40,246 bases of DNA. Source: Psammoneis japonica (lineage: Eukaryota). Position 1 is the first letter of the stretch, and the number at the start of each line of letters is the position of its first letter. Under the pieces are notes generated by a model that was not told the DNA's origin, made no database searches, and saw only the letters and a program-made list of their open reading frames with translations. The translations under genes and the position numbers were made by a program. Below are positions 5,790 to 40,246 of the stretch, piece after piece. The stretch is taken from contig QPGO01000361.1 in NCBI GenBank assembly GCA_008632985.1, forward strand, positions 1 through 40,246. Reading direction: 5' to 3'.

Positions 5790-7100
5790 TAAAATGTGTG
5801 GCCTCATTGCTCCTTTTCACCCACTCTGTTGACTGATCTGACAGGCAAGGGAGCCACTTCAAACAATGGACAGCTGGCACCTGCCAGAGAGCAGTTGATG
5901 AGATGAAGGAAGTGATTGCACCCAAAGCACCACTCCTCACCTGTCTGAATGTAAACCCAACATGCCACATCCACACTGATGCATCTGACTGCTGGGTGGG
6001 TTCCAACTTCATTCAAGATGGTCAGCCTCTCATGGCAGCATGCTCATCTTACAAGCTTTTGCCAGCTCCTTGGCAGCATGCATGGCTGCTCAACAAGTTC
6101 TTCTCTACATTGCATGGGTGCATGCTGGCCACAAAAAACTCACTTCACACACCTTGAATTTGCAATGAGTCCTCAGGTGGCAACTGCTCCTTGAGGAGCA
6201 TGCTCCACATTTTGTTTGCATTGAAGGCAAGGAAAACATGCTCTTGTCTTTTCTTTCTCAGCTCCTGCACTTGGCTCCCCACCTTCAGAGGGAAAGAGGA
6301 AGTCAAGAATTGTCTGGCAATTGCAAAGGCGCAAGCCAGTCAATTTTGCAAACTTGGGTGTGTCAGAATTGACCAAGGATGAGCTTGAGAATGCATGCTG
6401 CTCAAGTGTGTGTGTGCTGCTTGTGAGAACAGCACGCAGTCCAGCAACACCTTTTTGTCCCTTTTTGGTTAGCCAGAGCTGTTCAAGTGCTGCCTTTTGA
6501 AATTGCCCCAGGTTGCAAGAGGGACAGAACCTGACAGAGATGCTGCGGTTGCAGCAGCTCCAGAGTTCAAGGAAGTGCAGTTGAGTTGATGGCAGCAGCA
6601 GAACACAAGAATCTTTGTTGTCAAGATTGTGAACAATTGTGCATTGATTTGTTGTCATCAGCAGCCAACTGGTCCTCCTGGAGCTGGGAAGATTTGCACT
6701 CTGACCAATTTGTTGTCTGACATTGCTGTGTGGTGCCACCATGTGCTTGGCACTGTTTTGTGGAGCCTGACTGTGCAGCTGCATGTGAACACTTGTGTGC
6801 ACACTTGTGTCATCCTGCATTGCACTGTGTTTGCAATGATTGTGGTGCTTGCCAATGTTGCAAGCATCTTGGGCTGGGCTGTGGCAAGCTGTTGGAAAAA
6901 AGGCTCCATTTTTTCTGGCCATGGGCTGAAGCTGCAGTCAATTTGATTGGCTTGCAGATTTGAGTTTAAAGCTCTCACTTGTGCCAATGCTGAGTTTTTG
7001 CTGGAAATTTTGCCAAATGTTGATGTTGAGGAGCCACCAAGCGGCAACTGTGCTGCAGCAACCGTCATCTCCAAATGAGTGCATCAAATGGCATCCAACA
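5790..7100 (+). mobile_element. Ty3/Gypsy LTR retrotransposon pol relic (RT connection, RNase H, integrase)
   Basis: Successive decayed motifs: WPH..LTDLTGKG..WT..CQRAVDEMK; HIHTDASDC..G....QDGQPL; HKKLT...Q*VLRWQLLLEEHAPHFVCIEGKEN; WCHHVLG; CGACQCCK..G.GCGKL....PWAEAAVNLIG. The RT-RH-INT order is Gypsy-type. Confidence 0.88.
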
Positions 7101-7299
7101 TTCTGTTCATTGTGCTTGTCATGTTGGCTCACCTGTCAATGTTCAGCAGGTGAGCAAAACAGCTGACACAGTGCTTTTTGGCTGCAGCTTTGTGTTTGAG
7201 CAGATTGCCCAACAACTGTGCTGCAAAATGATGCAAAAATGCCACCAAACTCATTTGGAATGGTGCATGACACATGGGAGCATGACAAAAACATCATCA

Positions 7300-7500
7300 A
7301 TGTCACAGTCCAGCTGTGCAAGGTCTCACCTGGAGCTGGTGGAGTGCACCAGCAAAGAAGATCCTTTGAGAACTCTGGCTGCCAAGAAGTGTGAAACATT
7401 GTTTGACTGTGCTTTGGGCAAGTGGAAAGGTGATCCCTGCCACAATCTCCAGCTGAAGGATGGAGTTGGGCCATTTCATGCTTGACTGTGTGACGCTCCA
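7300..7500 (+). mobile_element. Second Ty3/Gypsy fragment (segment just upstream of RT)
   Basis: KKCETLFDCALGKWKGDPCH.LQLKDGV.PFHA resembles the Gypsy KYETLFDGTLGKW.G.PY.I.LK.G..PYHA segment. It lies after the integrase, so it is a separate copy. Confidence 0.75.
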
Positions 7501-7629
7501 ATGGCCTTGGAGCCTTTGTGAGCAAAGCGCACATTGTGTGGCTCCTCGCCCCAGCCAAGCATCACACACAGCAGCCAACAAGCTGCCGGCTCCACGCCAA
7601 GGTGCAAACAATGATGGACAGATCGAGGA

Positions 7630-8370
7630 ATGTCAGACATGATGAGAGTCAAGCAAAGCGTGAAGGATGGACGTCATGTGGAGCCCAGCTCTCACCAGAG
7701 ATGCAATCATCGAGCACGTGGTGCCGAGTGCTTTCTTGGATTGTGCTTCGAAGTGCAATCCTCACCGCCTCTAACGCATCCGCTGGAAGCATCTGAGGAT
7801 TGTGCAACATCTCGTCTGCCAATCCTGCTAGAGCTTGGCACATCACTGAGCGATGGAGAGCTCCAAAATCCTTGTGGTCTCGGTCTCCGTTGAACTCATC
7901 GATGCCCCATTCCAATGGATTCTCTGCCATTTCCCGTTGCTCTTTGTCCTAGTGCTGAGGAAGAATGAACTTTCGTGGCTTCACCATTGTGTGCCAGGAG
8001 AAAACGAATGAATGCCTCAAAGGCAGAAACTCTCTTTGTTTGTGGTGGTTTCACTCGAAAACTCGACCCAATGCGGCGAAGGCTGCCGAGAGTCATTGCG
8101 GAAGATGTGCTGCCACCAGCCAGAGAGCAGAAGGCCACCACACCTGAAATTTTGGATTTGTTTGGCACTTTGCCATGCCAAGGGCCTGCCACACTGAAAT
8201 TTTCGACTCTGTCCAAAGCCACATTGGATTGGCTGCAAATCTCTAGTCTGTCAAAATTGCACCCTGCACATCTGTTCAACGATCTACCACGCGCGTGCCT
8301 CTTGTCACTCTGTCTCCACTCCACTGCACCGCATCTCGAAGCTAGCCAGCTGGCTCTCTGGAGGTGTGCT
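7630..8370 (-). pseudogene. Relic of an unidentified protein-coding sequence (TA-depleted, CpG largely retained)
   Basis: Overlapping ORFs 7896..8324 and 7649..7930 read like a globular protein but contain no Tyr, with His/Cys where Tyr would be plausible. Family not recognised. Confidence 0.45.
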
Positions 8371-11222
8371 CTCTAGAGCAGAGCGGAACCTGACTCCTGC
8401 AAATGTGCTTTGTGGCGGTGTTCCTCACTTTTCTGAGCTTTTGGCACATTCTTGGCATTTGCACCAGGAGACATTTCCAACAAAGTGTGAGAACAAAATG
8501 CTTGAACACAAGTGTGCATGTGTGTGCTGGAAATGTCAGTTTTGAGTTTTGTGCCAGCTGAAGTTGACACCCTTTCACAAAAAAACAGCGCTGAACCCGT
8601 GCATGTTTTCTGCCTGCAGGGCAGGCATGAACACATGTGTGCCAAGGTCATGATGCTGCCAAGCTTCATGTCAGCACTCATCACATTTTTCTGCATGATT
8701 TGCAGGAAGCTGTGCCCTTCTCAACTGGGGCAAGTTTCTTTTTTGGTGCCTCACACCCATCTCAACAACTCACTCTTGCACATGAATCTCCCACTCAGGA
8801 GAGCAAATCCTTGTGAACAATGGCGCTGTTTGCTGCATCTGCTGTGAAAAGTGCTGCTGCTGCCAGTGGAGTGGTGCCTCTGCCATGCCTCCTCTCCTGG
8901 CGGCCTTAAAACACCTTGTGCAGAGAGTGTTTGGGTGTTGCACAACTGCACCAGCACTGCCAGCCCTTTGTTCAACCCAGCTGCTTTGCCCTCAAAAGCC
9001 AGCTTCACCTCCAATGTGCTGCTGTGAAGAGCACAATGGCTTGTGTTTGAACCTGGTCCATGATCTGCTGACAACCGGCATGCCCCAGAGGTCAGCATTC
9101 TTGAAGCACTGCAGTTAACAGCTGCAGGTCTCAACTCACCCCAAAGATGATTTTTTGGAAAACACCACCCCTGATGAACATTTTAAGTGCTGCTTCAATG
9201 CCATCATGTGGAAAGCTGTGGCTCCTAAAAAAAGCCCTTGGCAGTCTCACTGGCTTGAAATTTTGCAGCCTGCAAAGCCAGAAAACAAGTGGAAAAAGAA
9301 CAAGCATTGTCAGCTTGGTCAGTTTTGTGCCCCTGGTGGGCACAGATCTCTGCAGTCATGTTTGCCTGCTCAGTGCAGCAGAGCCATTCAATCTCATGCA
9401 CTGGCAAAAACTGGCAAGACCTGGTGACAAGTGCTGCTCTTTGGCCAAAATGACAATGCTGGCTCTGGTTGTGTCACTCAATTTCTTGTCCACATTTTTT
9501 TCTGGACTCACTCTGGTGCTGCATGCATCAACCAACTCATGCAGCCTGTGACTGTGCTCTTCACTCTTGCTGCTTGCTTGTGACGTCCCGTTGAGCACAC
9601 ACACAAAAGCAGCACTCATGATGTCCATGTGCCCACTCTGCACATTTCCAAAAATGTGCTCTCTTTGCATCCATGCTGATCTCCAAAAATGTGAGCCTTG
9701 CACCAAGTCTCTTTGTGAAGTCCCTGTGCCAAAATCCTGCTTGTTTCCATGGCAGAGTTTTTTTTACAAGTGACACTTTTGTCCAGACATTCTTTTGGCA
9801 ATGACTTCTTCCACCTTCAATGACTCTGCTTGACTTGCTCCCAGCACCACTTCAGTTTTCTTTTTGGTGCACATTTCCTGCTGATGTGTGCTTCCATGTT
9901 TTTTGTTTGGCAAACATTTCTTGCAGCTGTGTTTGCTGCTTTGGTGATCTTGCACAAAAAGAGCTCTTGCCATCAGCATGTCTAGTTTTTGTCATTGGCT
10001 CACACCAAGAGAGCACGATCTGTTTTCTGACAAGTTCATTGGCAAAACAGCAGACATGTGGTTGCATCCACGGGTTGTCAACAAAGCAGCAGTCAGCCAC
10101 AAGCAGCCACAAGGTCATTTGTGAACCCAAAAAGTCAAGCTTCTTTGTGAAATTCTGCTGGGTGATGGCAATTGGAGAGCTCATTTTGACTCTCCAACAC
10201 TTTGTGCCTTGCAGGGGTTGTGAGCTCCAACTTGAGCTTGGGTCAAAAAATGCACCCAACCAATGAAAAGGGCTTTGTTGAGCCCCATTTCTGGTTGCAG
10301 TGTGCAAAAATTCTGGTGGCGCACATGCCCATGTCATGGCAAGATCTGCAGACCACCAGGGTCATGATGAGCAGCAAGTTTCTTTGTCAACTGGTGCTCA
10401 TTGTGTTGTGCCAAGCACATCAAAATGCTCGTCTCCTTCCTCTTGCAGCCAAGTGTTGTGCATCTTTGCTTGGGCTGCCCAGCTGATGGATTTTGCTGAG
10501 TTGTTCTTCTTGAGCTTTTTTCACACTTCTTCTGGCCAGCTGTGGCTGGTGTTGTCCAGTCAGTCAACAAACAAAAGAGTCACTGTTTGGAGTTGATGCA
10601 ACTCAACTTCTCATTGTTGGCGCATCATGTGTTTTCCTCATGTGGCAGTCATGCAGCACACCATCTCTTGTTTGCACAATTCAGAGAGAGGGGCAGAGTT
10701 TCACACACAACAGGTGGTTCCAGGTGAGCCCTTGCTTTTTAATGCTGCTCCAGAATTTCTCACAGAACAAAACACTTTCATGTCATCATCATCACATGAC
10801 AAAGTCATGTCATTCCTTGCCAACAATGCTCAGTGTTGACAAGCCAGCAATGAGTCATTGGGGTCTGATGAAAAATGATCATGTCTTTTTCTTCTGCTCT
10901 GCAGTGATGCTGCTGGCTACAGGCAATCTTTGTCATGTCTGTTGAGTGAATCTCTTGCAGTCATGTGCCTGCAGCACTTCGTTTGTTCAACAAGCACCTT
11001 GGCATTAAGCATCTTGCACCCTTGCTTGCTGTTGCAAGGGGATAACAAAAGAAAAAAGAGGTGCGACGCGGCGAAAACTCGGCATGGTTGCGGCGCAATT
11101 ACAAAAAAGAGGCAGTCTGAAGAATCATCCATGTACATTATAGTTTGTCATTTCAGCGCAAAAGTAGCCAAAAGGAACCTTAATGACTCGAGTGGCATTA
11201 GAAATATCCACCTTTTAGCTCA

Positions 11223-16341: not shown

Positions 16342-19300
16342 ATGGCAGTATGGATAGACGTGGTTAGACACGTGAGCATGAGCGTCCCAAAATGGGGTTG
16401 TCTGGTCCTGTTGGTTTCATTGTGTTTATTCCGCTTGTGTGCAGCTGCTACTCACACGGCAGGATTGTACTTTCAAGAAAGTCTTACCGGCCCTCTCGGC
16501 GTTGGATATTGCGATGATGAGATGATAAATGTTCTTTCAACCCTGGAGTATTTGAAACGAGTAAACGGGACCCTCAGCGACTGGAACTTTGACATTTCAA
16601 TCAAGAGCTTTGACGATCCCAACCTTGAGTCTAAGCTTGAGTCCTTTACGGTCTTTATCATGCCAGAAGTCGAAATTGGACCTGTTGACGGCTGGGGTGA
16701 AGCCCCCCAACGATTAATGAGATCCTTTGTAGAAAGCGGAGGAATACTGATTATGATGTCTCCAGTTTACGGCGGCCCTCAGTTTTTGAACTCAATCTTC
16801 CCCGGTTGGGATGTACGTCATGGTAGCCGGTGTCGAAGTCCAGTTCCCTTGAACCCAGACGCGGTAGCTGGAACATCCTTTGACGGAGGGCCGGCTATGC
16901 TTGGCTGCCCATTCGCCACGTACGAAATCATGTGTAGAACAGTACCGTGCACGCCGATATATGGGACGCCGCAAGCAGCTTTGTTGGTGTTGTTCCCATA
17001 TGGTTCTGGGGTTGTCATTTATTATGCTTGGGATTACTACAATGGTGGCATGAACATTGACATTCCAGGCGTTGGGACGCACGTAGATTGCCCGCACAGA
17101 TTCGACGATTGGGCCATGGAGATCCTTCCACGATCGCTAAAATACAAAGACTTTGTTGCAACTCAAGGCTCACCAAAACCCGCCGATCAGCCTGCGCCAC
17201 CTCCCGCCGCTCAAAACATCGCAGGGTTATACTTTCAAGAAAGTCTTACCGGCCCTCTAGGCGTTGGACACTGTGATGATGAATCGATTAATGTCATTTC
17301 CTCCTTGGAATACTTGAAACGAATAAATGGAACGCTCCGCGACTGGGATTTCGACATTTCAATCAAAAGCTTCGACGATCCCAACCTTGAGTCGAAGCTT
17401 GAGTCCTTTACGGTCTTTATCATGCCCGAAATTGAGATAACAAGTGATCTATCATATGTGGATGGTTGGGGTGAAACATCCCAACGATTAATGAGATCCT
17501 TCGTAGAAAAAGGTGGAACACTAATACAGATGTCACCTCACTATGGAGGACCGAACTTTGTGAATTCCATCTTCCCAGGATGGGATGTAAGATTTTCTGG
17601 CCGTTGTAGAGCCTCGATGCCTCTAAATACAGATTTGGCAGCTGGGACATCCTTTGACGGAGGGCCGGCTATGCTAGGTTGCCCAAGCTCTACGTTGGAA
17701 GTTAGTTGCGGAACCGTTCCTTGCACGCCGATATACGGGACAGAGAAATTTGCGACGTTGCTGTTACTCCCGTATGGCTCAGGGGTTGTCATTTACTATT
17801 CTTGGGACTTTTTCAATGGTGGCATTAGTATCGACATTCCAGGGGTTGGGACGCACATAGATTGCTCGGCTAGATTCGACGATTGGGCCATGGAGATCCT
17901 TCCACGAGCGCTAGAATACAAGGACTCTGTCGCGAATCCGAGCACACCATCACCATCAAATCAGCCAACAATAGCACCTTCAGTTGTCCAAACTTTGGAA
18001 TGTATTGATGATCCAGAAGGCTGGCATGACTCCGATGGTGACCAATATGATTGCGCCTGGTACGCTGGGGACAACAACTGCGAGCAATACGGAGATTTGT
18101 TCAGCAATCTTGGTGCAACCGCAAACGAAGCTTGCTGCGCCTGTGACGGAGGCAGAATGGTTGCTATGAAAGATTCTGCAGTAACATCGAGTCCGACTCA
18201 GCCACCTACTTTTTTTCCATCGCCATGGCCTACGTCTGGGCCTACAATGAGCCCCACAACATCGGCTCCGACGTTGCCACCAACGACTTCTTTCACACGC
18301 CCACCTACATCATCTCCCTCACCTGCGCCAACAAGTCGTCCGACACCAATGCCAACACTGAATCCAACAGCTTCTCCAACACAGAACCCATCTTTATCTC
18401 CAACAGTAAAGCCTACCCCAGAGCTTACGATACCTCCAACCTCTTTACCGACAAAGTCTCCCACGAATTTGCCTACACTAGCAAGTACATTATTGCCGAC
18501 AAGGTCACCAACACCTATACCAACGTCTCATCCGACGGATCCTCCCACCGCGTCGCTGACACGGGCAACGACTGACATTCCAACTGCAAATCCATCAGAA
18601 GACCCGACCCCGTCACTCTCATCAAAGCCTACACTGAAGCAGACACCCTCACCAACTTTGGAGCCAACGTCTCAGCCAACAAAACATCCAACATCACTCC
18701 CCACAAATCTCTCTACAAAGCAGCCTAGAATACCGACGCCAGCAAAAACCGGGCAGGTGTGCTCCAAAAAAAAGGACTGTACTTCTAAGATATGTAGGAG
18801 TGGAGTCTGCATGGCATCTGCGGAATGCTACCCTGTCAAGCACAGACACGGAACTCGATTTGATATCCATGCTGTGAATCTAGTTTTTGTTGGGTCAGCG
18901 TTCAATACAACAACTCACGAGGCTTGGCGTGAGGAGGTCAAGAAGACCAATAGATTCTTCAGACTTTACAAAGCGTTCGGAAAAGATGTGGATCAGCTCA
19001 ATGTCTTCCTTGTGGAACCTGCTGAATTGAGCGGTTCCTTTTGCAATTACGGATGTCAAAACATTGATCGGTTGCTGTGTTGTGATATAGAAACCGTTGA
19101 AGCTCTTGCAAGCAAGTGTTTCTCAGTCGGTCCCAACCTTCAAACTCTTGTGATCCACAACGATTTGAAGTACGGAGGAGCTGGATACCCCAATCAGAAC
19201 ATTGCCACAATGTCTACGCATCCACTTGGCGCTTTCATTGCTGTACATGAGCTTGGCCACTCGCTTTTTGAACTCAATGATGAGTACATGTATGGCGATG

Positions 19301-20103
19301 GCACTGAGAACGATCCAAACTGTGATGCCACGGCGGACTGTTCGAAATGGTCCGATCTGATGGAAAATACACCGGAAGGGTACGGTCAAGTAGAATGCGT
19401 GCCCGGTTGCCAGAACAATCGCTTTTTTGTTTCGGGTACGACATATATGCGTGAATTAAGCCGCCCCGTGGGAGCGGTGAATGAGCGTTTCAGCTGCTGC
19501 ACGTATTTGGCCCTCACGAAATCCGTCCCATTGTACTGCCAAGTTTTCGACATGGCTCCCGGCTATCTTTACGATTATTGTGAGCGCCACGATTATCAGG
19601 GATACGGAAAGTCAATCTACCAAAATAACACGGCAATTCAAATCAAAGCGTCTTTTTCGCATTTTAACGCAACGGAGGAATCCAGCAAGTACACGTTTGT
19701 GAGAGACCCGGTACTAGTCAAGGTAAGGTTACGGAGGAATGGCAAGGTAGTAGTTCGAGATGAGCCCTATTCCTTGCCCTCTGGAATGTACCCGACGAGG
19801 CAGGTACGAGGTGACTTTGGCCGTCCCAAGGACGCTTCCCGGCAAGGCGTTGATTCGATAGTCAAGGTCAAGGTATTTTACCGATCGGGAAAAGAGATCT
19901 TGTACTTTTCTCGCAACGTGACGGTTGCAGTCCCGCTGTTGCCCCCATCCATGGACCATTACACGACAAAGGATAAGAATGATGGTGAACCACGGCGTGT
20001 CTACCCAAAAGCCAAAGTCATCGAGATGGTTCTCGAAAGAAATGAGAGAAAGATACGAAGATTCCGAGGACAGATTATTGAAACCGCAACTACCGAATCA
20101 TAA
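16342..20103 (+). CDS. Secreted modular metalloprotease: signal peptide, two ~240-aa alpha/beta domains, Cys-rich module, Pro/Thr/Ser stalk, peptidase M64-like domain
   Basis: 1253-aa intronless ORF. YGGAG and HELGHSLFELNDEY match the M64 pattern HExGHxxxxLxDEY. Contains the module CIDDPEGWHDSDG...CAWY...EACCAC. The true start may be ATG 16378. Confidence 0.85.
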   Translation: MAVWIDVVRHVSMSVPKWGCLVLLVSLCLFRLCAAATHTAGLYFQESLTGPLGVGYCDDEMINVLSTLEYLKRVNGTLSDWNFDISIKSFDDPNLESKLESFTVFIMPEVEIGPVDGWGEAPQRLMRSFVESGGILIMMSPVYGGPQFLNSIFPGWDVRHGSRCRSPVPLNPDAVAGTSFDGGPAMLGCPFATYEIMCRTVPCTPIYGTPQAALLVLFPYGSGVVIYYAWDYYNGGMNIDIPGVGTHVDCPHRFDDWAMEILPRSLKYKDFVATQGSPKPADQPAPPPAAQNIAGLYFQESLTGPLGVGHCDDESINVISSLEYLKRINGTLRDWDFDISIKSFDDPNLESKLESFTVFIMPEIEITSDLSYVDGWGETSQRLMRSFVEKGGTLIQMSPHYGGPNFVNSIFPGWDVRFSGRCRASMPLNTDLAAGTSFDGGPAMLGCPSSTLEVSCGTVPCTPIYGTEKFATLLLLPYGSGVVIYYSWDFFNGGISIDIPGVGTHIDCSARFDDWAMEILPRALEYKDSVANPSTPSPSNQPTIAPSVVQTLECIDDPEGWHDSDGDQYDCAWYAGDNNCEQYGDLFSNLGATANEACCACDGGRMVAMKDSAVTSSPTQPPTFFPSPWPTSGPTMSPTTSAPTLPPTTSFTRPPTSSPSPAPTSRPTPMPTLNPTASPTQNPSLSPTVKPTPELTIPPTSLPTKSPTNLPTLASTLLPTRSPTPIPTSHPTDPPTASLTRATTDIPTANPSEDPTPSLSSKPTLKQTPSPTLEPTSQPTKHPTSLPTNLSTKQPRIPTPAKTGQVCSKKKDCTSKICRSGVCMASAECYPVKHRHGTRFDIHAVNLVFVGSAFNTTTHEAWREEVKKTNRFFRLYKAFGKDVDQLNVFLVEPAELSGSFCNYGCQNIDRLLCCDIETVEALASKCFSVGPNLQTLVIHNDLKYGGAGYPNQNIATMSTHPLGAFIAVHELGHSLFELNDEYMYGDGTENDPNCDATADCSKWSDLMENTPEGYGQVECVPGCQNNRFFVSGTTYMRELSRPVGAVNERFSCCTYLALTKSVPLYCQVFDMAPGYLYDYCERHDYQGYGKSIYQNNTAIQIKASFSHFNATEESSKYTFVRDPVLVKVRLRRNGKVVVRDEPYSLPSGMYPTRQVRGDFGRPKDASRQGVDSIVKVKVFYRSGKEILYFSRNVTVAVPLLPPSMDHYTTKDKNDGEPRRVYPKAKVIEMVLERNERKIRRFRGQIIETATTES
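18190..18745 (+). repeat. PT/PS tetrapeptide-type mucin-like coding repeat
   Basis: Repeating xxPT units (SPT, APT, NPT, KPT) in the translation. Confidence 0.85.
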
Positions 20104-20401
20104 CTCATTTTCTCAAACCATGGTTCCTCTTGGCTTCATTCAAAGACAAAGGGAATATGCTTACTCCAAACATGTTCCGTATGTGTCTGTTGTCTGTGAT
20201 GTTTCACTGCTTCAAACACGACCCCCTCTCCAGTCAACCTTTTATATCCATCTGTATGGAATGGAAGATCCGAGAAAGGAACCATGGGCTGTTCACGTTC
20301 GAGCAAAAGCATCAATGCAAATTTTCTCTGACTTATGCTATCCTCAAGTTTAACGTCTCCTGAACTATTTCTTTATTGGTTTTGTGTTTCATGGCAACTT
20401 T

Positions 20402-23030
20402 TAATTAGATTAGTCGCGAGGAGGCTGTCGGAACGGAAGAGTAGAATAGATAGAAGGGGCACACGGCACCTGCGCAGTGTAGGGCGTTTGGCGCAGATGG
20501 GATGGGGAAGAACCGAAAAGCATTGGTGGAAAGGTGATGAGGGATGTTGTAGCCCAAGGTTTGAGTCACCCATTGACAAGGGGAGGAGGACTGGTGTGTG
20601 ATTCCGCAGGTGAAGTCAGAGGAAGAGAGGTGGGGGCACGAAGGAAAGTGACACAGGAAGCATTGCAGAGTTGTGGAGGGAACAGAGAGCCAGGTCCTTG
20701 CACTGGAGCAAGGTGGTGGAGGAGCTGCTGAGGCAGAGATAAGATTGCAGGAGTTGTTCCAGCCAGGGGGGCAGGAAGAGCTTGAAACAGTGAGGAAGGG
20801 TGAAGGTTTGTGGTGGGATGGCAAGATGGAGCAGCTTTGGCAAAGCCACCAGCAACAGCCAGGAAGCAAGGAGGAGGGGGGCAGCATGAGGTGTGGGGTG
20901 CAGAGCAGAGGACTGGCAAGTTGTGACAGAAGTTGGTGCAGATGAGGTGAGCAGAGGAAGGAACAAAGCTGTGCTTGAAGGGCTGGGCTTGGGTTTGCCT
21001 GTTGTGGAGAGGCAGTGCTGGGCAAGAGTTTCTCCACCTTGGCAGGGACATGTCAGAGAGAAAGGACTTGGCAAAAAAGCTTGGGAACCCAGGGGCTGGA
21101 CAGAAATGGACACCAGAATTAAAATTGGGTCAAAGGGTGGGCCATTGTCAGGGTTGAAGCAGAAGAAAGCATTGCAAAGGGGGGCTGCCTGTGAAAGAGG
21201 GAGGATGAAAATGTGGCTGGTGCAGCTGATTGACGTGAGAAGCTTGTTTTGAGGAGGTCAAGTTGGGCATCAAGAGCAAGAAGCTTGTGGTTCTTGGGGT
21301 GGAGAACCAAAGAAAGAATTGGGTGCTGGTGGCAAAAAGTGGGGCCAAGGTGGCAGCCTTGAGCAAGTTCTTCATGCTGGACAATGGAGTTTCATGAAAA
21401 GAGTTGGGGCAATGGTGCCAGCATTTGTTGGAGCTCCAGCAAATGATGTTGAAGAATGGAAGCAGTGGGTCAAAGACAAGCATGGAGGCAAGGAGGCCAT
21501 GGCAAGCACTGCACAACACTTTGCTGAAGAACACGTGGCACTGGCAAGGCTCAGGACGATCCATGCTTTGGCGGAAGTGATGGAGTGAAGATGACATTCT
21601 GTGTCAGCAAAAACAGAGCAGACAAGGACATCAAGGCTGCCTTTGACACTGACTCTGAATTGTCCATTGAGGAGGAGGCACTTGGCAAACTTAGAGGCCA
21701 AAGAGAGCCATCATGACAGAGTCTAAAATGTGCGCCAAAGAGTGGGGAGGCCAATGCTGGTTGGACAAAATTTGTTCTTGAGGCTGGATGGGTCCTCATG
21801 CAGAGCTCAAAAAAAAGCATTGGAGGAAGCAAGAAGAGAAGGGTGGGTGGTGGAGGAAGGCACTGGCAAAGCACTTTGTGGCAGGAGAATGAAGGCCCAA
21901 AAAACAGAGGCAGGTGGGGGGCGCTGTGGGTCACCGGCGGGAGTCTCAGTGGAGTGGAGGCAAGCAGGAGGGTGCAGGCTTTGAGATGATCAGCAGAGAC
22001 AGCAAAGATGCTGGCTGCAGCAGTGGGTTTGCACCTGCCAAGGGCTGGCAGAGAGCAGAGCACCGGCATGGAGGGAGATGGGGTGGGGTTGTTGCTGCAG
22101 GAGGAGGCAGAGCACATGGCAGGGGTGAAAGGAGTGCAAGCACCTGCTGAACAACAATGTGATGAAAAGAGGTTCAAAGCTCTTTGCAGGCAGAGGAGAA
22201 CAGGTGATGTTGGGAAGAGGTGCAGAAGGAAGGAGGTGTGAGCTCAAAAGGGAAGAGAGTCACCGAAGGAAGAGGGCGGCCACTGGCCTCCTGCATCGGG
22301 CATCGGACAAGGTTGGGGCAATGATGCCAGCATGAGCCATGCAAGGACAGAAGCACTGTTCCAAAAATGCTTCTGGAGGTGCCAAGAGGAGCTGGCAGCA
22401 TCAAAAAACTGGCTGGAAATGTGAGAAAGAGAGGGTGCACACAGGGGTGCTCCTGGCAAGGACGGCTCTGCCAAGATCTCCCCAAAGAAGGTGCAGCTGC
22501 ACGCAGCTGATTTGTAGAAAAAAGGGTCCAGGAACAGAGGGGACAAGTCAACAAGGTGCAGGTGCCAGCAACAGCTTCCATGAGATGATGTGGCTGCAGA
22601 GGGGTTTGAAGTTGTGGGCAGCAGTGCAAGAGCGGCGCTGCATGGAGGCACGTTGACTCGGAAGAAGTGGGGAAGGGCAGCAAGGGGTGAGGTGATGAAG
22701 TCATTGAGTGAGCTCAAGGAGCTCAGTGTCACACTGCAAAGGCTTGCAGTTGCCAGATTTAGCATGCATGAGGCAGCAGAAAATGGGTGGCCAGAAACGC
22801 AAGGAGAGGGGCGCGCTTGATGGGAGCAGAGGCTCTGTTGATGGAGAGTGCTGGCTGGAAGCAAGAGGAGGGTGGTGGAGGCAAGACAGCACATCCTGAG
22901 AAGGAGTGGGTGGCTGAGCTGTGGTCATCAAAGAAGGCGGTGTGTCAGTGATGAAAGAAGAGTCAGGGATGGTGGCAAGGAGGTTGGAAGGGAATCCATC
23001 ACAGCTGTGTAGTGCAGGGTGGAGTTTGCA
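20402..23030. mobile_element. Unidentified purine/G-rich insertion between the M64 paralogs, hypermutated block C
   Basis: Similarity to the paralogous 3' flank (gtgtttcatggcaacttt, cf. ~27279) stops at ~20402. About 7 TA in 20560-23010. Strong G/A skew on the + strand. No protein motif recognised. Confidence 0.5.
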
Positions 23031-23266
23031 CTCATGTCGGTCATTCGTTCGGTCATCGAAAGTCATTTGTGAACGTAATATTCTGATTTTAGTACGAGTC
23101 GAATTAGCATGGACATTTGTTTATGCCCTTCGATCGTTTCGCCGCGATTTTATTATGTCCAGCAATCGTCCACTTTTTCTTCTTGCATCCTGATTTTCCT
23201 TCGCAAATCACAGGCGACGTGCAATAAAGGGCGTCGAAACATCCGTTCAGTTATTGACGGAACAGG

Positions 23267-26200
23267 ATGAAACAAATGGCAGCAGACATGGTTAGACGCA
23301 TGAGCATTGGCTTCCCAAAATGGGGGTGTCTTTTCATGCTTGTTTCCTTGTGGCTATTCCATTTGTGTGCAGCTGCTACTCACACGGCAGGATTGTACTT
23401 TCAAGAAAGTCTTACCGGCCCTCTCGGTGTTGGACACTGTGATGATGAATCGATTAATGTCATTTCTTCCTTGATATACCTAAAACGAATAGGAAGACTC
23501 AGTGAATGGAATTTCGACATTTCAATCAAAAGCTTCGACGACCCCAACCTTGAGTCAAAGCTTGCGTCCTTTACGGTCTTTATCATGCCAGAAATTGAGT
23601 TGACAGATGATCTTTCATATGTGGATGGTTGGGGCGAAACTCCCCAACGATTAATGAGATCCTTCGTAGAAAAAGGTGGAACGCTAATACAGATGTCACC
23701 TTACTTGGGAGGACCTAACTTTGTGAATTCCATCTTCCCAGGATGGGATGTAAGATATTCTGGCCGCTGCAGAGCCTCGATGCGTCTAAATTCAGATGTG
23801 GTAGCTGGGACATCCTTTGACGGAGGGCCGGCTTTGCTTGGTTGCCCAAGCTCCACTATGCAAGTCAGTTGCGGAACCGTTCCTTGCACGCCGATATACG
23901 GGACGGAGAAATTTGCGACGTTGGTGTTACTCCCATATGGTTCAGGTGGAGTGATTTACTATTCTTGGGATTTTCACAATGGTGGCAAAAGAATCGACAT
24001 CCCAGGGGTTGGGATGCACATAGATTGCCCGTCTAGATTCGATGATTGGGCCATGGAGATTCTTCCACGGTCTCTAAAATACAATGACTTTGTCACAACT
24101 CCGAGCACACCGTCACCAACAAATCAGCCAACAATAGCACCTTCAGTTGACCAAACTTTGGAATGTATTGATGATCCAGGAGGCTGGCATGACTCCTATG
24201 GTGACCAATACAACTGCGCCTGGTACGCTACAGACAACAACTGCGAGCAATACGGAGATTTGTTCCGCAATTTTGGTGCAACAGCGAACGATGCATGCTG
24301 CGCCTGTGAGGGAGGCAAAGTGGTTGCCATGAAAGATTCTGCAGTATCAATGAGCCCGACTCAGCTACCTACTTCTTTTCCATCGCCATGGCCTACGTCC
24401 AGGCCTACAACGAGCCCCACAACATCGGCTCCGACGTTGCTACCAACGAGTTCTCCCACGCGGACACCTACATTATCTCCATCATTTGCGCCAACAAGAC
24501 GTCCGACACAAATACCAACACTGAATCCGACAGATTCTCCAACACGGAAACCAAGTTCACCTCCAACAGTAGAGCCCACGCCACGGCTTACAATACCTCC
24601 ATCGCCATTGCCTACGTCTGGGCCTACAATAAGCCCCAAAACATCGGCTCCCACGTTGCTACCAACGACTTCTCCGACGCGGACACCTACATCATCTCCA
24701 TCACCAGCGCCAACAAGTCGTCAGACAACAATATCAACACAAAATCCGACAGCTTCTCCAACACAAAACCCAACTTCATCTCCAACAGTAAAGCCCACGC
24801 CAGAGCTTACGATACCTCCAACCTCATTACCGACAAAGTCGCCCACGAATTTGCCTACACTAGCAAGTACATCATATACGACAAGTTCCCCAACACCTAT
24901 ACCAACGTCTCAGCCAACGGATCCTCCCACCACATCACCGACACGGACACCAACTGACATTCCAACTGCTAATCCATCAAAAGACCCGACCCCGTCACTC
25001 ACATCAAAACCTACATTGAAGCCGACGCCCTCAACAACTTTGGAGACAGCGTTGCAGACAATAGAAAATGCAACATCACTCACCGCAAGGCCCTCAACAA
25101 TGCAGCCTAGAATACCGACGCCAGCAAAAACTGGGCAAGTGTGCTCCAAAAACAAGGACTGCACTTCTAAGATATGTAGGAGTGGAGTCTGCATGGCATC
25201 TGCGGAATGCTACCCTGTCAAACACAGACACGGAACTCGATTTGATATCGATGCTGTTAATCTAGTTTTCATTGGGTCAGCATTCAATACAACAACTCAC
25301 GAGGCTTGGCGTGATGAAGTCAAAAAGACCAATAGATTCTTCAGACTTTACAAAGCGTTCGGAAAAGATATTGATCAGCTCAATGTCTTCCTCGTGGACC
25401 CTGCTGAATTAAGCGGTTCCTTTTGCGATTATGGATGTTCAAACATTGATCGGTTGCTGTGTTGTGATATAGAAACCGTTGAAGCTCTTGCAAGCAAGTG
25501 TTTCTCCGTCGGTCCCAACCTTCAAACTATTGTGATCCACAACGATTTGAAATACGGAGGAGCTGGATACCCCAATCTGAACATTGCCACAATGTCTACT
25601 CATCCACTTGGCTGTTCCATTTCTGTACATGAGCTTGGCCACTCGCTTTTTGAACTCAATGATGAGTACATGTATGGCGACGGCAGTGAGGATGATCCAA
25701 ACTGTGATGGCACGGCGGACTGTTCGAAATGGTCCGATTTGATTGATAATACACCGGAAGGGTACGATAAAGTGGAATGCGTGCCCGGTTGCCAGAACAA
25801 TCGCTTTTTTGTTTCGGGTACGACATACATGCGTGATTTAGGCCGCCCCGTGGGAGCCGTGAATGAGCGTTTCAGCTGCTGCACGTATTTGGCCCTCACG
25901 AAATCCATTCCATCGTACTGCCGAGTTTTCGACATGGCTCCCGGCTATCTTTACGATTACTGCGAGCGCCACGATTATCAGGGATACGGAAAGTCAATCT
26001 ACCAAAATAACACTGCAATTGAAATCAAAGCGTCTTTTTCGCATTTTAACGCAACGGAGGAATCCAGCAAGTACACGTTTGTGAGAGACCCGGTACTGGT
26101 CAAGGTCAGGTTACGGAGGAATGGCAAGGTAGTAGTTCGAGATGAGCCCTATTCCTTGCCCTCTGGAATGTACCCGACGAGGCAGGTACGAGGTGACTTT

Positions 26201-26485
26201 GGTCGCCCCAAGGACGCTTTCCGGCAAGGCGTTGATTCGATAGTCAAGGTCAAGGTATTTTACCGATCGGGAAAAGAGATCTTGTACTTTTCTCGCAACG
26301 TAACGGTTGCAGTCCCGCTGTTGCCCCCATCCATGGACCATTACACGACAAAGGACAAGGATGATGGTGAACCACGGCGTGTCTACCCAAAAGCCAAAGT
26401 CATCGAGATGGTTCTCGAAAGAAATGAGAGAAAGATACGAAGATTCCGAGGACAGATTATTGAAACCGCAACTACCGAATCATAA
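23267..26485 (+). CDS. Paralogous secreted M64-like metalloprotease with a single N-terminal domain and a longer PT stalk
   Basis: 1072-aa ORF highly similar to 16342..20103, with the same HELGHSLFELNDEY motif. The last ~500 nt are near-identical. Confidence 0.85.
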   Translation: MKQMAADMVRRMSIGFPKWGCLFMLVSLWLFHLCAAATHTAGLYFQESLTGPLGVGHCDDESINVISSLIYLKRIGRLSEWNFDISIKSFDDPNLESKLASFTVFIMPEIELTDDLSYVDGWGETPQRLMRSFVEKGGTLIQMSPYLGGPNFVNSIFPGWDVRYSGRCRASMRLNSDVVAGTSFDGGPALLGCPSSTMQVSCGTVPCTPIYGTEKFATLVLLPYGSGGVIYYSWDFHNGGKRIDIPGVGMHIDCPSRFDDWAMEILPRSLKYNDFVTTPSTPSPTNQPTIAPSVDQTLECIDDPGGWHDSYGDQYNCAWYATDNNCEQYGDLFRNFGATANDACCACEGGKVVAMKDSAVSMSPTQLPTSFPSPWPTSRPTTSPTTSAPTLLPTSSPTRTPTLSPSFAPTRRPTQIPTLNPTDSPTRKPSSPPTVEPTPRLTIPPSPLPTSGPTISPKTSAPTLLPTTSPTRTPTSSPSPAPTSRQTTISTQNPTASPTQNPTSSPTVKPTPELTIPPTSLPTKSPTNLPTLASTSYTTSSPTPIPTSQPTDPPTTSPTRTPTDIPTANPSKDPTPSLTSKPTLKPTPSTTLETALQTIENATSLTARPSTMQPRIPTPAKTGQVCSKNKDCTSKICRSGVCMASAECYPVKHRHGTRFDIDAVNLVFIGSAFNTTTHEAWRDEVKKTNRFFRLYKAFGKDIDQLNVFLVDPAELSGSFCDYGCSNIDRLLCCDIETVEALASKCFSVGPNLQTIVIHNDLKYGGAGYPNLNIATMSTHPLGCSISVHELGHSLFELNDEYMYGDGSEDDPNCDGTADCSKWSDLIDNTPEGYDKVECVPGCQNNRFFVSGTTYMRDLGRPVGAVNERFSCCTYLALTKSIPSYCRVFDMAPGYLYDYCERHDYQGYGKSIYQNNTAIEIKASFSHFNATEESSKYTFVRDPVLVKVRLRRNGKVVVRDEPYSLPSGMYPTRQVRGDFGRPKDAFRQGVDSIVKVKVFYRSGKEILYFSRNVTVAVPLLPPSMDHYTTKDKDDGEPRRVYPKAKVIEMVLERNERKIRRFRGQIIETATTES
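24350..25125 (+). repeat. PT/PS mucin-like coding repeat with an internal duplication
   Basis: PTSRPTTSPTTSAPTLLPT... recurs as PTSGPTISPKTSAPTLLPT... Confidence 0.85.
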
Positions 26486-26663
26486 CTCATTTTCTCAAAC
26501 CATGGTTCCATAGGTTGCCAGTGATCATGTCTTTTCATCCCTCCCCTGAACACTGTTCAAGTCGAATCCACCGGGTAGTTGTATTCCGTTGATCAAAATC
26601 CTTGCATCCTCCATCACTGGATTCACCGCACTCATGCTGCGTAGTGGTTTTTCTTGCAAACAA

Positions 26664-26739
26664 AATTCCCATTGCAATTGCTCCTTGCAGGCTGGGGAGA
26701 ACGAATTCCCATTGCAATTGCTCCTTGTAGGCTGGGGAG
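26664..26739 (+). repeat. Two 36-bp direct repeats with a 40-bp period
   Basis: aattcccattgcaattgctccttg[c/t]aggctggggag at 26664 and 26704. Confidence 0.95.
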
Positions 26740-26825
26740 GACGCAAAGGCGTTGGAAACATTTTCTCGTTTGCACTGCTTCAAAGAACACTCACTTTAGA
26801 GCCAACTTGAAATCCATCTACTTGT

Positions 26826-27300
26826 ACTCCGGAATGCATCCGACGAGGCAAGTGCGACGGTGACTTTGGTCGCCCCAAGGACGCTTCTCAGCAACGCATT
26901 GATTCGATAGGCAAGGTGAAGGCATCTTGCCGATCGGGAAAAGATATCGCACTTTTCTCGCAACGTGACGGTTGCAATCCCCCTGTTGCTCCCATCCATG
27001 GACCAGTTCACGACAAAAAGGATAAGGAGGACAATGGTGCTCCACGAAGCGTCTATCCCAAAGACAAATTCATCGAGATGGTTCTCGAAAGAAATGAAAG
27101 ATGCGAAGATTCCGAGGACAGATTATTGAAACCGCAAGCACCGCATCATAACTCATTTTCTCAAACCATGGTTCCTCTTGGCTTCATTCAAAGACAAAGG
27201 GAATATGCTTAACTCTCACGAACATTGTTCAAGTGGAATCCACTTGCTAGTCTCTAGAACTGTTTCCTCATTGAACCTGTGTTTCATGGCAACTTTGTGT
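26826..27300 (+). pseudogene. Third, truncated copy of the M64-like gene 3' end and 3' flank
   Basis: Aligns to 26161-26510 and to 19780-20160 and 20360-20402. Carries frameshifting indels. Confidence 0.92.
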
Positions 27301-35241: not shown

Positions 35242-36180
35242 TATGCATGGACGGACGACTCATTTTTCAGATATTTTTTTTTAGGACCAGACCAATCGCA
35301 ACACCGACACCAAGAGCAATGCTTGTCGACACGTTTGAGCGGCTCGTTGTATCGGAGAGAGCGAGACTGCTCATGACATGACAACAACGCACCGGTAAGT
35401 TTGATGTCGTTTGTTTTTTACGAATGTCAAGTGCGAATTTTGAAATTTCGCGATTTCCAGATTACTGTATTCGAAGCTTCGAAGCACGATATGTAAAATG
35501 ACGTCATCTACCACGACATGTGAGCGCTCGTGCATGCACTTCTCTCTTCTGCTCGAGCTCTGTCGACGGCATAAGAAAAGATGACAACGCATTTGTCTGT
35601 GGATGACTTGAGGCATGCTGTGCTTGGAAAAATGGCCCAAGAGAGGGGTTGGTCAAAATGTGAGCCCATGGGGAAAGGCCTCAAGCATTGTTGTCTTGGC
35701 GTGTTGACTGGGTTTGCTCCAAAAGACCAGAGGTGGAATCTTGCCCGTCTTCAAATTGCAGCTTCTTGCAAGCTGCTGTCCATGGCACTGGTGCAGTGGA
35801 GAACATTGCAGCAGAGGATCCAGGTGCTCTCTTGGCAGAGAGGACAGCAATGAGGAGAGTGAGAAGAAGCCCCACCAACAAGAGAGGACATTTGCCAGTT
35901 GTTGACTCTGTTGTGAAGAGCCCATGCCAGGGACATTCCCGAATCCGCCGTCTCGAGACCATCTTGTCAAAATTGTCAATGCCTGAATGATGCACAATCG
36001 CCGTTAATTGTCACGTTTTGTCGCTAAACCAACAGTGCAGCATGCATGTATGTGCATTCCTGTATTTTGTTACAAACACACATTAAAAAGACGACATGGC
36101 GAGGCACTCTCATGGCTAAAAGCACAATGACTCAAGAACGAGTCACCTGGATAAAAGTCACAATTGTTGAACAGCACTTG

Positions 36181-36505
36181 TGACTCACAACAGCTCACGA
36201 CAACTCACGACAACTCACGACAACTTGCGACAACTCACGACAACTCACGACAACTTACGACAACTCACGACAACTCACGACAACTCACGACAAATTTCAC
36301 TTGACTCGCGACAAATCTTTAGACTGCACACATTAATTGAGTCATGTGAGTCATTGTGTTCAATTGCTTGCAGTGTGAATGTGACAAACAAGCGCTCCCG
36401 ACAACTCATGACATTTCTCACTCAACTCCCGACAACTCCCGGCAACTCCCGACAACTCACGACAACTCACGACAACTCACGACATTTTCGACAACTCACG
36501 ACATT
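36181..36505 (+). repeat. 10-bp minisatellite (CAACTCACGA)n in two arrays, ~36181-36295 and ~36395-36505
   Basis: Directly visible tandem units, with variants caacttgcga, caacttacga and caactcccga. Confidence 0.95.
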
Positions 36506-37644
36506 TTCGGCTTGTCAGGCATTTCGGGCCATTCGATTCAATGACCTTGGTGATTGATTGGCAGTTCTCGCCAAAATGATCGTTCATTGCATGCTTGCAT
36601 CCTTAGATTGCACAAGGGAACCAGATCTTCACTGATCACTTTGTGCATGTTAACAAACATTGTGCACGCATGCATGTCTCAAATTGTTGGGATCGCCAAA
36701 ACAAGAATGTCGTCGATGTCACATTCAAGAAAAGAAAATTCGCAAGTTGGCCGATTCGGGAATGTCCCAGATGAAGTGTGCAAGTTGTTGACAACCACAG
36801 GCTTGGATGATTTGCTCATTGGATGATCAATCACCACAAGTGCTGCAAAAGCAGGAGCAACATGTCTGTGCCAAGAACATCAGCAGGCTGTGCCAGCGCC
36901 CAAAAAGAAGAAAGGATTTGGATCATTTGTTGGCTGGCGCTGCTGTCGTGCCACTCCTTGCAAGCAGAGCTGCTCTTTCCACATGTGCCAAGAAGAAGTG
37001 AGAACTCAGTTGGTGGCAAAGGGAACAAAGTGTTGTTGGAAACAGCTTGCTGATCCTGTGAAAGCAGCTGAGTTTTGTGGCGAGGCCAGCATTTTGACTC
37101 CAACAAAGGGAACCTCAGGGAAGGAATGAGAGCAACATGGCATCACTGAATGAGATGTGAGAAACAACAATGGACAATCAAAGATGGGTGGCTGTTGTCA
37201 GAGCTTTTCTCCCAACTTTGATGAGAAAGTTGGCACAATCAAATGGACCGGCAAGGATGGTGCAGCTCACCAAACTGTTTGCATCACCACTGTGATGGGT
37301 GCAGCTGGTGTGACTTGTTTGTGCAACAGTTGCAACACAGGCACACAGTTTGGTGCAGCCTTGACCTCACATGTGCTAAATCAGTCAATTGCAGCTAACA
37401 TGTCTTGCATGAAATGCTGTCATGCAGCACATGAGGTGATGCAGAACAGCAAAAAGAGTCCAGCACTTCTTGTTGGAAAGCACAATGGCAAATTTTCAAG
37501 CAATTCAATGAATGGGCTGGCCGTTGTGGAGGAATTCTTGCTTGAGAAATTTGGGAAAGATCTGTTGATGGATGGCAACAATCAATGTCTTGGTGGCAAG
37601 ATTGCTGCTGGCAGCAATTGGGGAGGGAGATCAACTGAGGTTCA

Positions 37645-38030
37645 AAGCTGACATCATCAGGGAAGAAGCTGTGGGATGGACTTGAAAATTTCATTGCAGC
37701 TCTCACATGGAAAAAATTAAAACGAGGCATTGCACAAATTGTTGAGAGACAAAGATCCTGCTTTTTATGGAGTTGGAGTGTTGAAAATGCAAGGATCACT
37801 TCCACGAGGAGCAACGCAAAAGGAGGCAGCCACCCTCCAACACAGACACAAGCTGACATCTTTGGGAAGGAAGCTGTGGGATGAACTTGAAAATTTCCTT
37901 GCAGCTTTCACACAGAAAAGAATTTAAACAAGGCATTGTGCACAAATTGAGGGAGAAAGATCCTGCTTTTTGTGAAGTTGGCGGTCTTGGAAAATGTGAG
38001 GATCACTTCTTCCACATTGAGCAACATAAA
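37645..38030 (+). repeat. Diverged tandem duplication with a 205-bp period
   Basis: aagctgacatc...gaagctgtgggatg.acttgaaaatttc.ttgcagct...aaagatcctgcttttt...ggatcactt starts at 37645 and 37850. Confidence 0.9.
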
Positions 38031-40246
38031 AAAAATGTCTCAAAGAGATGAGAGTGCTGACAGGTGAACCACCAAGCAAGCAAGAGAAGGAAGCTAAGAA
38101 GAAGACATCAAATGTGATCTCTCAAGCTGTGTTTGTCCACCAAAATTGGTGTGGTGTTTTCAAAACAAAGCTTGAGAGAAAACCATTTGACAACTCCAAG
38201 GGGTGGCTTGAAGAGTTGGGGACTTGTCCCAAGCATCCACCAAGGGTGAGGCAGAGTCTGCCATTTGAAATTTTTCCCCATGACTCTTGGTGGCACATGC
38301 AACAAACTTGCACAGCTCAGAGCACAGACCAGAGATCCAGCCATCAGAAAGACAGCAGAAAGTGTCTTCTTCTCAGCCACCAACCATTCTTGCCCTTCCA
38401 CAACTCTGTGGGGCCATTTCATTTTTGTGTTTCTCTGCCTTGCCCAAAAAGCAAAAAAAAAATGCAGCATGAGCATTGTCATGTGGATGCACTGCAAGGG
38501 CACAAGCATGCACGCACCATTTGTTCTCAAAAACAAAGCTTGCCATCTGCAAACTTTTGATGCACATCAGAGCTTTTGTGGTGCACAAACAACACAAAAT
38601 GAATGAGAGTTGGAAGATTGACCACCTCCACTGCACTTGCCTGGATCTTCCAAAGTTTCCATTTGTTGCCATGTTGCAAGTGTTGCAAAATGTTTTTTCA
38701 GCAGAAAATCACGATGCAAACTGTGGCCAAATGATTTGAGCTTTAAAAAGTGGCAATTGGCCACTCTCAAGTTGTCCACTTTTTTGCCTGTTGTCAGTGT
38801 TTCAAAAAAAAAGGGACAAGTTGTCATTGTGGCTCATGCCATCAATCACACAAATGTTGTTGTTGTTTCAATCCTGATGACTTGATCCTGCCCCCTGGTG
38901 TCATTGCTTTTGGGCTTTGACCACAATTTTGTTGCAGCTCATGTGTTGGTTGTGTTAGAAGGATGACATTGCAACATCTTCATTCAAAGAAGAAACACAC
39001 ACATTGGTGTGGCTGTGCTCTGGCCCCACTCTCACTGCAAACCATGCAGTGGCTCACTGCATGAAACTGCACATGCATGTGATTGGTGCCCTGAGCCATC
39101 AAGTGGTTGGCAGCACACCAAAAACAACCTGACAGACAATGGCTGAAAATGTGGAAGGCAACAAGACATCCATCAAAAACCCACATGTCAGCCCATGCAG
39201 TGATTTCTGTTTGACAACCTGCATGCTTTGTTTTGGTGGTTTGCCACATTCTTTAAAGTCTCCACACTTCTGCTGTCTTGTTCATTGTGAGCCTCATTTT
39301 TCTGGCTCAATTTGGCATTTGACCCTCTGGAACAAATTGCGCGTGCACTTCTGCGCACATCCTCCCAAACCACAGCATGGTTTGCCAATTCTGCAGGGCT
39401 CTCATTGCTTGTCCATGCAGCAAATCATTCAGTGGTTTGACATTTTTCTGGCACTGCTCTGCAGTGCTTTCCAGGGATGAGAAAATCACCGCCAACGACC
39501 ACAGCCATGACGGTGATTTGACGGTGACCGCATGCTCCATCATGCACAAGTGGCAGCTGACAACATGCTGCATCAAGAATGGTGGCTTTTTTGTTGCTGT
39601 CAACAAGTTTTTTACTTGGAATCACTGCTTCATTTGGTCATTGGCGAGTTTCACGCTGTGCAAGTTGCGAGCCACTGAGTGGTTGGAGATTTTTTGCCCG
39701 AGTGTGTGGGCAGACAGCTGGAGAGCACATTGGGTGCATGCCATTGTTGTTGGGGCTTTTCCCTCCATCACATTTCCACCAACACCCCTTTCTGTAGATG
39801 CCAGGGTTCTGTGGTGATGGAGGGGTTGGGTCGGCAGGAATGTGTGGCTTGAGGGTGGTGCAAAAAAGATGGGCCGAGGGTGCAGACAGATGGTTGGAAG
39901 GAGGAGTTGTCATTGACAGTTGGGTGTTGGAGAAGGAGGGCTTGGCATGTAGAAAGGTGATTGGAGAGAGCGACGCCGAACTCAATGCTGAGGATTTGTG
40001 AGGCCCAAAGTTGGGGGGTTGCTTGAGGGTGATCGCGAGCTCGTGAGGCGTACGTAGGCACGCATCGCATGCGGTCATAATGAACAACCAGAAAGGGCTA
40101 TTGTGTTAGATTAGTCAGATAAGGATCTTCGTTTCGTATATCATCCTGTAAGAACTATTTAAGCACGTATATATGATGAATATAACATGTATCGAATACA
40201 GTATATTCAGCATTAAAAAGAAGAATATGCGAAGGTCTTCAACTGA

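Follow-up and report, generated by a model that had tools for sequence, protein, structure and literature searches.

TpA-specific A:T to G:C change with intact CpG in a dead peptidase-gene fragment of the diatom Psammoneis japonica

Can a short dead copy of a gene lose its TA dinucleotides while its CpGs stay in place, and what kind of process would remove them? This question is raised by a gene fragment in the stretch of Psammoneis japonica DNA analyzed here (the window, 40,246 nt). The window is eukaryotic in character, as indicated by its long open frames and by gaps with GT..AG borders that appear in contigs from one sequencing run. The first-pass annotation had described the fragment as an early-stage relic with A-to-G changes concentrated in TAC and GTA, and had taken a TadA-like DNA deaminase as the best fit.

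Anatomy of the relic and its surroundings

Two M64-like peptidase paralogs lie upstream of the relic, which is a partial copy of their 3′ end. The features involved are:

16342..20163, + strand: paralog A, a 1253-codon open frame (16342-20103) that encodes PT repeats and a Peptidase_M64 domain, followed by 60 nt of 3′UTR
23258..26509, + strand: paralog B, a 1075-codon open frame (23258-26485), plus 24 nt after the stop codon that match paralog A
26486..26825, + strand: spacer of 340 bases that separates the paralog B stop codon from the relic, partly TA-depleted
26826-27211, + strand: the whole relic, a frameshifted tandem partial copy of the 3′ end of the peptidase paralogs
26826..27144, + strand: coding-derived part of the relic, corresponding to the approximately 108 final codons of the paralogs, with 39 substitutions and four indels
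27145..27211, + strand: 3′UTR-derived part of the relic, identical to paralog A 20097-20163 at 67 of 67 bases
27250..27296, + strand: 3′ flank of the relic, matching 20355-20401 (downstream of paralog A) at 81% identity

Paralog B is the tandem partner of paralog A and likewise carries PT repeats and a Peptidase_M64 domain (Pfam). Named homologs of the peptidase gene come from diatom and dinoflagellate transcriptomes. As reference for the relic, positions 19779-20163 of paralog A and 26161-26509 of paralog B were taken. Relative to these stretches the relic carries four indels (+1, -2, +5, and -4), which identify it as a pseudogene fragment. Beyond the codons, it extends over the initial 60 bases of the 3′UTR, of which only the first 24 after the stop codon are common to paralogs A and B.

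The UTR-derived part stands apart from the rest of the relic. At the divergence of the coding-derived part (12%), the probability of finding no difference over 67 bases is 1.7 × 10−4, and the identity therefore points to recent gene conversion or to a constrained 3′UTR element. The steps ATAA, ATAT, and TTAA are retained here. No stable fold beyond that of shuffled sequences was detected for these 67 nt (z = -0.69), and Rfam returned no match within the window.

Over the stretch corresponding to the relic, divergence between paralogs A and B is far below that of the relic from either. In the ungapped alignment of their 3′ stretch from 18216 onward, 118 differences fall within the first 1400 bases; the peptidase-domain part differs at 53 of 900 bases. 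The last 512 bases (19616-20127 of A, 25998-26509 of B) differ at ten positions, one of them a transversion, and this low divergence suggests recent homogenization of the 3′ ends. At the other end of the gene, the N-terminal domain of paralog A is duplicated internally (16459-17192 and 17221-17966, 77% identity), and paralog B carries a single copy that is nearer to the second repeat of A (89%).

The spacer upstream of the relic has a TA rho of 0.28, a CG rho of 0.50, and a CA/TG rho of 1.40, with seven TA steps remaining. Relic and spacer together (26486-27211) form a patch of approximately 0.7 kb that took an intermediate dose of TA loss; TA-rich DNA adjoins it downstream, with 33 TA steps in the 489 bases of 27212-27700, seven of them of the type RTAY. 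Within the spacer, a tandem duplicate of approximately 34 nt was noted at 26666-26739, whose units differ solely by ttgCagg/ttgTagg, an unpolarized CA/TA difference. Between the 3′ flank of paralog A (20164-20354) and the spacer, a 12-nt exact match was all that was found (E = 0.017), and it was not relied on.

Contigs from sequencing runs of one sample (X1 and X2) were also compared with the window. Among the 40 of 291 differences that were listed, none was a TA-type variant in the relic. The X1 contigs carry G for C at 26858 and have the C-run after 26978 longer by one base; both differences are allelic or due to assembly, neither is TA-related, and together they alter the indel tally of the relic slightly. 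Differences listed at 26203-26360 represent the paralog A version aligned to paralog B. Run X2 yielded spliced contigs over neighboring genes and covers 26170-27503 hardly at all, which is not readable as silence.

TpA-specific change and its direction

Substitutions were counted over 335 gap-free columns in which both paralogs agree, a comparison in which gene conversion among the copies could have erased or imported states in the relic, and rates were compared by Fisher tests. The informative events number seven to eight, all from a single fragment of 320 nt. The relic differed from both paralogs by 39 substitutions, comprising 24 transitions and 15 transversions. The transitions were evenly balanced, with 12 A:T>G:C and 12 G:C>A:T changes. 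The former, however, were distributed very unevenly: they hit 8 of 25 sites in TpA context, but only 4 of 148 A:T sites outside TpA (p = 2.2 × 10−5), and the p-value stays below 10−3 even when multiplied by the 16 trinucleotide contexts. Since the overall spectrum is balanced, the excess is specific for TpA and does not reflect a general A>G bias. By context, the A:T>G:C changes were:

TAC: 6/12
TAT: 0/5
TAA: 1/5 (27027, beside an indel and doubtful)
TAG: 1/3

The six changes named in the first-pass annotation are all present relative to both paralogs, i.e. GTA>GCA at 26837, 26923, and 26950, and TAC>TGC at 26854, 26929, and 27103. Equally, no TAC or GTA is left in 26830-27150, and the TA steps that remain number six: ATAG, ATAT, ATAA (twice), CTAT, and TTAT. 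Transitions removed seven TA steps (eight if the doubtful site 27027 is counted) and created none; of 12 ancestral steps five persist as TA, and one new step has appeared. On the + strand the events split into three A>G and four T>C changes, without bias.

TAC stood out against all other A:T sites (p = 2.1 × 10−5), but much less so within TpA, where the comparison with the other TpA sites (2/13) gave p = 0.097 and that with TAT gave p = 0.10, only three of the TAT sites being independent of a competing TAC site. That the hits of the relic are rich in TAC follows from its starting material, because TAC, contributed by Tyr TAC and Val GTA codons, made up 12 of the 25 TpA sites present ancestrally.

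CpG proved mostly intact, as had been described, with 24 CpGs in the relic and 23 in each paralog, and CG>CA changes at 26890 and 26898 only. G:C>A:T transitions were found at 2 of 46 CpG sites versus 10 of 116 other G:C sites (p = 0.51), and change at TpA exceeded change at CpG (p = 0.003, or 0.006 without site 27027).

Two near-identical paralogs and a relic cannot polarize their differences, and for this reason 34 distant homologs were aligned, using the C-terminal 420 residues as query (the best were only 40-46% identical). The residues at the non-synonymous TAC-type sites were:

26837: paralog Y; Y/F in 29/34 homologs; relic H, in 1/34
26923: paralog V; V/I in 27/34 homologs; relic A, in 1/34
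26929: paralog Y; F/Y in 27/34 homologs; relic C, in 0/34
26950: paralog Y; Y or another hydrophobic/aromatic residue in 31/34 homologs; relic H, in 0/34
27103: paralog I; V/I in 33/34 homologs; relic M, in 0/34

At all five sites the relic is the changed copy, in line with the direction assumed at the outset. The reverse polarity would make the TGC/GCA of the relic ancestral and have the paralogs gain TAC/GTA by C>T change at CpA in a RIP-like manner. It draws on the three-way comparison, which alone polarizes no difference, but it is hardly credible with the paralog residue or its conservative twin dominating in the 34 homologs. At the sixth site, 26854, the change (GTA>GTG) is synonymous, and two further differences lie in the non-coding 3′ flank (20362-20376 versus 27258-27274), where gaacTAtt/gaacTGtt and ctTTAttg/ccTCAttg were found to be real, though without an outgroup. 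At 40-46% identity, the homologs leave these three sites unpolarized.

TpA does not erode everywhere at the rate seen in the relic. TA counts are balanced between paralogs A and B (76 versus 80), and at their synonymous third positions TA-type differences (8/105) were not significantly more frequent than others (11/235; ratio 1.6, p = 0.31), this control consisting of expressed genes in a window that holds no neutral, untargeted, age-matched one. The 33 TA steps directly downstream of the relic bear on the same point.

TA-purged blocks and the TAY/YTAR pattern

Loss of TA is far more complete elsewhere in the window. Four sharply bounded blocks, which account for 14,553 of the 40,246 bases (36% of the window), are nearly devoid of TA:

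1..2650, no strand: purged block 1, with 9 TA steps, 7 of them YTAR; holds the pseudocopy 1276-1429
5150..10900, no strand: purged block 2, with 21 TA steps, 15 of them YTAR; TA gone and CpG partly kept at approximately 7400-8400
20480..22880, no strand: purged block 3, with 8 TA steps; located between paralogs A and B
36100..39850, no strand: purged block 4, with 19 TA steps, 13 of them YTAR; the first approximately 600 nt keep CpG

The blocks have rho values of 0.06 for TA, 0.20 for CG, and 1.77 for CA/TG, versus 0.55, 0.97, and 1.21 in the rest of the window. Unlike the relic, they are thus also depleted of CpG, in the manner of methyl-CpG decay. At 7400-8400 and 36100-36700, TA steps number 0-4 per 200 nt and CpGs 5-13 per 200 nt; with TA nearly gone and CpG largely kept, the two losses are uncoupled within the blocks too. 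None of the 13 open frames in the blocks matched Pfam. On the − strand of block 3 (20408-22924), many overlapping open frames of 150-230 codons were observed, again without Pfam match, and these are probably open only through erasure of TAA/TAG stops. Along the edge of block 4, at 36161-36504, lie two arrays of the 10-nt tandem repeat CAACTCACGA; its variant units CTTAC, CTTGC, and CTCAC form the series expected from TA>TG and TA>CA, although they are unordered.

Block 1 provides a second case of a copy with its parent. The pseudocopy 1276-1429 corresponds to positions 3290-3440, where a glycosyltransferase-like gene has its 5′ end with the signal-anchor region. In this pair TA went from 5 to 0, with all steps changed to TG or CA, and CG from 8 to 2, next to seven transversions in 151 bases. 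Three of the conversions are TAT-type, one TAG-type, and one TAA-type, and the sole available TAC site was bypassed.

The TA steps that survive in the blocks reveal the target. Among the 57 survivors are 39 YTAR steps, 18 with one TAY, and none of the type RTAY, versus 144, 546, and 321, respectively, in the rest of the window. Shares of TAA, TAC, TAG, and TAT differ accordingly between blocks and rest (chi-square p = 3 × 10−18), and the pattern recurs in each of the four blocks. Exposure of each context was estimated with a two-site survival model and 300 bootstrap resamples (95% intervals); the rest of the window stood in for the ancestral make-up of the blocks, and the fitted values are rough for that reason. 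They were 2.4 (1.97-3.14) for TAC and 2.85 (2.31-4.04) for TAT, compared with 0.25 for TAA and 0.51 for TAG, and TAC exceeded TAT in only 18% of resamples. Survival in the blocks relative to counts in the rest of the window was 7/271 for TAT-only and 11/275 for TAC-only steps, 0/69 for ATAT, and 7/271 for ATAA plus ATAG, while CTAG and CTAA/TTAG survived best. As TAT was erased as thoroughly as TAC, the target in the blocks is TAY (T-A-pyrimidine) and not TAC alone. Over 15 events, polarized or assumed (eight in the relic, two in its flank, and five in the converted pair), the 3′ base was C in six, T in four, A in three, and G in two.

Two known sources of A>G change were considered and rejected. 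Polymerase eta favors WA, including AA, but AA/TT is not depleted (rho 1.25 in the blocks versus 1.20 outside). ADAR favors UAG, and such a 3′ G preference does not agree with the exposure of TAG relative to TAC and TAT. The shares of TGN products in the blocks are confounded by CpG>TpG change and were set aside as evidence on the motif.

Candidate processes and known systems

Ordinary neutral decay would explain the relic by drift, with the TpA excess a product of mild genome-wide TpA instability or of chance. The equal numbers of the two transition classes, the 15 transversions, and a divergence of 12% fit this view, as do the five ancestral TA steps kept and the one gained; the rest of the window, too, has a TA rho of only 0.55, and the motif was chosen after inspection of the data. 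Decay of this kind is nevertheless unlikely to suffice, given that the TpA excess survives the 16-fold correction, that seven losses face no gain by transition, and that synonymous sites of the paralogs lack a comparable TpA excess. Moreover, TA-rich DNA with RTAY steps adjoins the relic downstream, and the conversions in the relic obey an RTAY-first rule that was derived from the blocks. A different possibility is the one closest to the first-pass annotation, namely a TadA-like DNA adenine deaminase with true TAC (UAC-like) specificity that edits young repeats, other TA contexts being lost later or otherwise. It has in its favor the 6/12 at TAC versus 0/5 at TAT in the relic, the steps GTAT and ATAC, in which the TAC-type A changed over the TAT-type A both times, and the TACG setting of two of the six TAC hits, which is also that of the tRNA-Arg loop. 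For one engineered TadA variant, moreover, a preference for YAC is described (PMC13109818). We nevertheless consider TAC specificity quite improbable. The p-values within TpA are close to 0.1 with three independent TAT sites, TAT-only steps in the blocks survived no better than TAC-only steps, the pair 3290/1276 converted five of five TA steps without a TAC-type A, and the two flank events are TAT-type and TAA-type. The TAC motif proposed earlier is thus better replaced by TAY.

The chemistry might also differ, if a modified or oxidized T of 5′-R-T-A-3′ mispaired with G, or if repair synthesis opposite TpA were error-prone. TpA is self-complementary, and A>G in TAY equals T>C in RTA by sequence, so adenine- and T-directed chemistry are inseparable at this level. 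The strand split of the relic (3 versus 4) agrees with such a source, as does the preference for GAA, and not TAY, of the one ADAT2 for which DNA editing has been shown (PMC10354150). We give T-directed or repair-synthesis chemistry little chance.

As the probable explanation, we propose that the relic is a dead partial tandem duplicate that received a partial dose of the TpA-directed A:T>G:C process that stripped the blocks. The 3′ end of the M64-like peptidase gene would have been duplicated in tandem, and the partial copy, dead and free of selection, would have collected ordinary substitutions and indels. It would additionally have taken a partial dose of the process by which the four blocks lost nearly all TA. 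That process would act on the A of 5′-T-A-Y-3′ on either strand; R..Y-flanked steps would then present two targets and be lost first, and YTAR steps would last longest. The concentration of hits in TAC would result from the TAY preference and the coding origin of the fragment. In line with the proposal made for Bigelowiella natans, enzymatic adenine deamination in DNA, with A converted to inosine and read as G, appears to be the most likely chemistry.

We infer that relic and blocks share one process. In the relic, RTAY steps were converted in five of five cases, versus two of six unambiguous one-TAY steps (one-sided p about 0.045, hand calculation), which follows the rule derived independently from the blocks. 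Against this explanation, the total spectrum of the relic is not hypermutation-like, with only 12 of 39 substitutions being A:T>G:C.

Dose rather than stage appears to distinguish the relic. With 4.5% transversions (15/335) and four indels it is no early-stage copy, contrary to the earlier description, and the fully converted pair has the same transversion divergence (7/151). The simplest reading of these small numbers is a low dose set by location and not by time: place, i.e. gene island versus purged domain, would count for more than age, and the dose would be independent of CpG decay. The nearest purged blocks lie 3.9 kb and about 9 kb away, which leaves regional spill-over no obvious route to the relic. 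A further step would be that the TA mutator also acts, at low dose, on a small duplicated host-gene fragment in a gene island without sign of cytosine methylation, as the homology-triggered arm of a 5mC-independent, TAY-specific DNA adenine-editing defense in diatoms. This is a doubtful proposition at present; if true, the arm would resemble RIP in logic and oppose it in chemistry, and the mutator would not be confined to silenced transposon domains.

Our literature search returned a single precedent for a TpA mutator, a 2026 preprint on Bigelowiella natans, and no report from a diatom. In mutation-accumulation lines of this chlorarachniophyte, A>G/T>C hypermutation restricted to TpA is described in local regions, its targets being integrated giant-virus and virophage DNA; the authors propose an ADAT2-type adenine deaminase, without demonstration (Mettrop et al., bioRxiv 10.64898/2026.01.13.699255). 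Mutators that act on DNA with TpA-specific A>G change are thus so far known from one alga, with the enzyme only proposed. The P. japonica case shares with it an excess of A>G/T>C change that turns TpA into TpG/CpA on both strands (8/25 in the relic, 5/5 in the converted pair, and throughout the blocks), local targeting as far as the four sharply bounded blocks are concerned, and long-term low TpA with high CpA plus TpG. It differs in several respects. The rate was measured directly in B. natans, whereas here it is deduced from anonymous blocks and one dead fragment of a host gene; the spectrum of the relic is not almost exclusively A:T>G:C (12/39) but combines old ordinary divergence with a partial dose; and the relic is a host-gene copy and not viral or transposon DNA. 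The main text of the preprint mentions neither a 3′ neighbor preference nor CpG, although its supplementary tables may differ, and in P. japonica CpG is lost in the blocks and kept in the relic.

Other systems share individual traits. RIP of ascomycetes introduces context-specific transitions (CpA>TpA) into duplicated sequence and affects both repeat copies. As in RIP, duplicated sequence here accumulates context-specific transitions that destroy coding capacity, but TpA is removed and not created, with the direction given by the 34 homologs, and the functional paralogs have no net TA loss. Methyl-CpG decay likewise yields TpG/CpA products and operates in the blocks, unlike in the relic, where the CpG count went from 23 to 24. 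TadA, which converts A to inosine, has its natural site at UAC, in the UACG of the tRNA-Arg loop with U33 5′ of the target, and native TadA and early TadA-derived base editors have a TA/YAC preference. With TadA, ADAT2-ADAT3, and TadA-derived editors, the process has in common the T immediately 5′ of the target A; TAY and the UAC of TadA agree in this T and in one of two 3′ bases, but differ in that TAT is erased as well as TAC, 4 of the 15 events being TAT-type. The one eukaryotic example with DNA activity, amphioxus ADAT2, is described as preferring GAA for adenine and hairpin loops (PMC10354150). No deaminase family was detected among the 24 frames of the window scanned against Pfam.

Few places allow such changes to be polarized at single sites, as the relic does by virtue of its intact parent gene and the outgroups. 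The relic also displays a partial dose and separates TA loss from CpG loss. Comparison with the fully converted copy, which has the same transversion divergence, suggests that the dose is governed by place and not by age. For candidate enzymes, the TAY/YTAR rule supplies a concrete fingerprint.

Two further repeat structures were noted in the window. A 159-nt tandem repeat at 33336-33860 comprises four copies with 70-87% identity to the reference copy, and the open frame that holds it (33004-33852) has no Pfam match. The adjacent open frames 12672-13736 and 13978-15507 both belong to the histidine phosphatase superfamily (His_Phos_1, E about 10−31) and thus represent another tandem gene pair.
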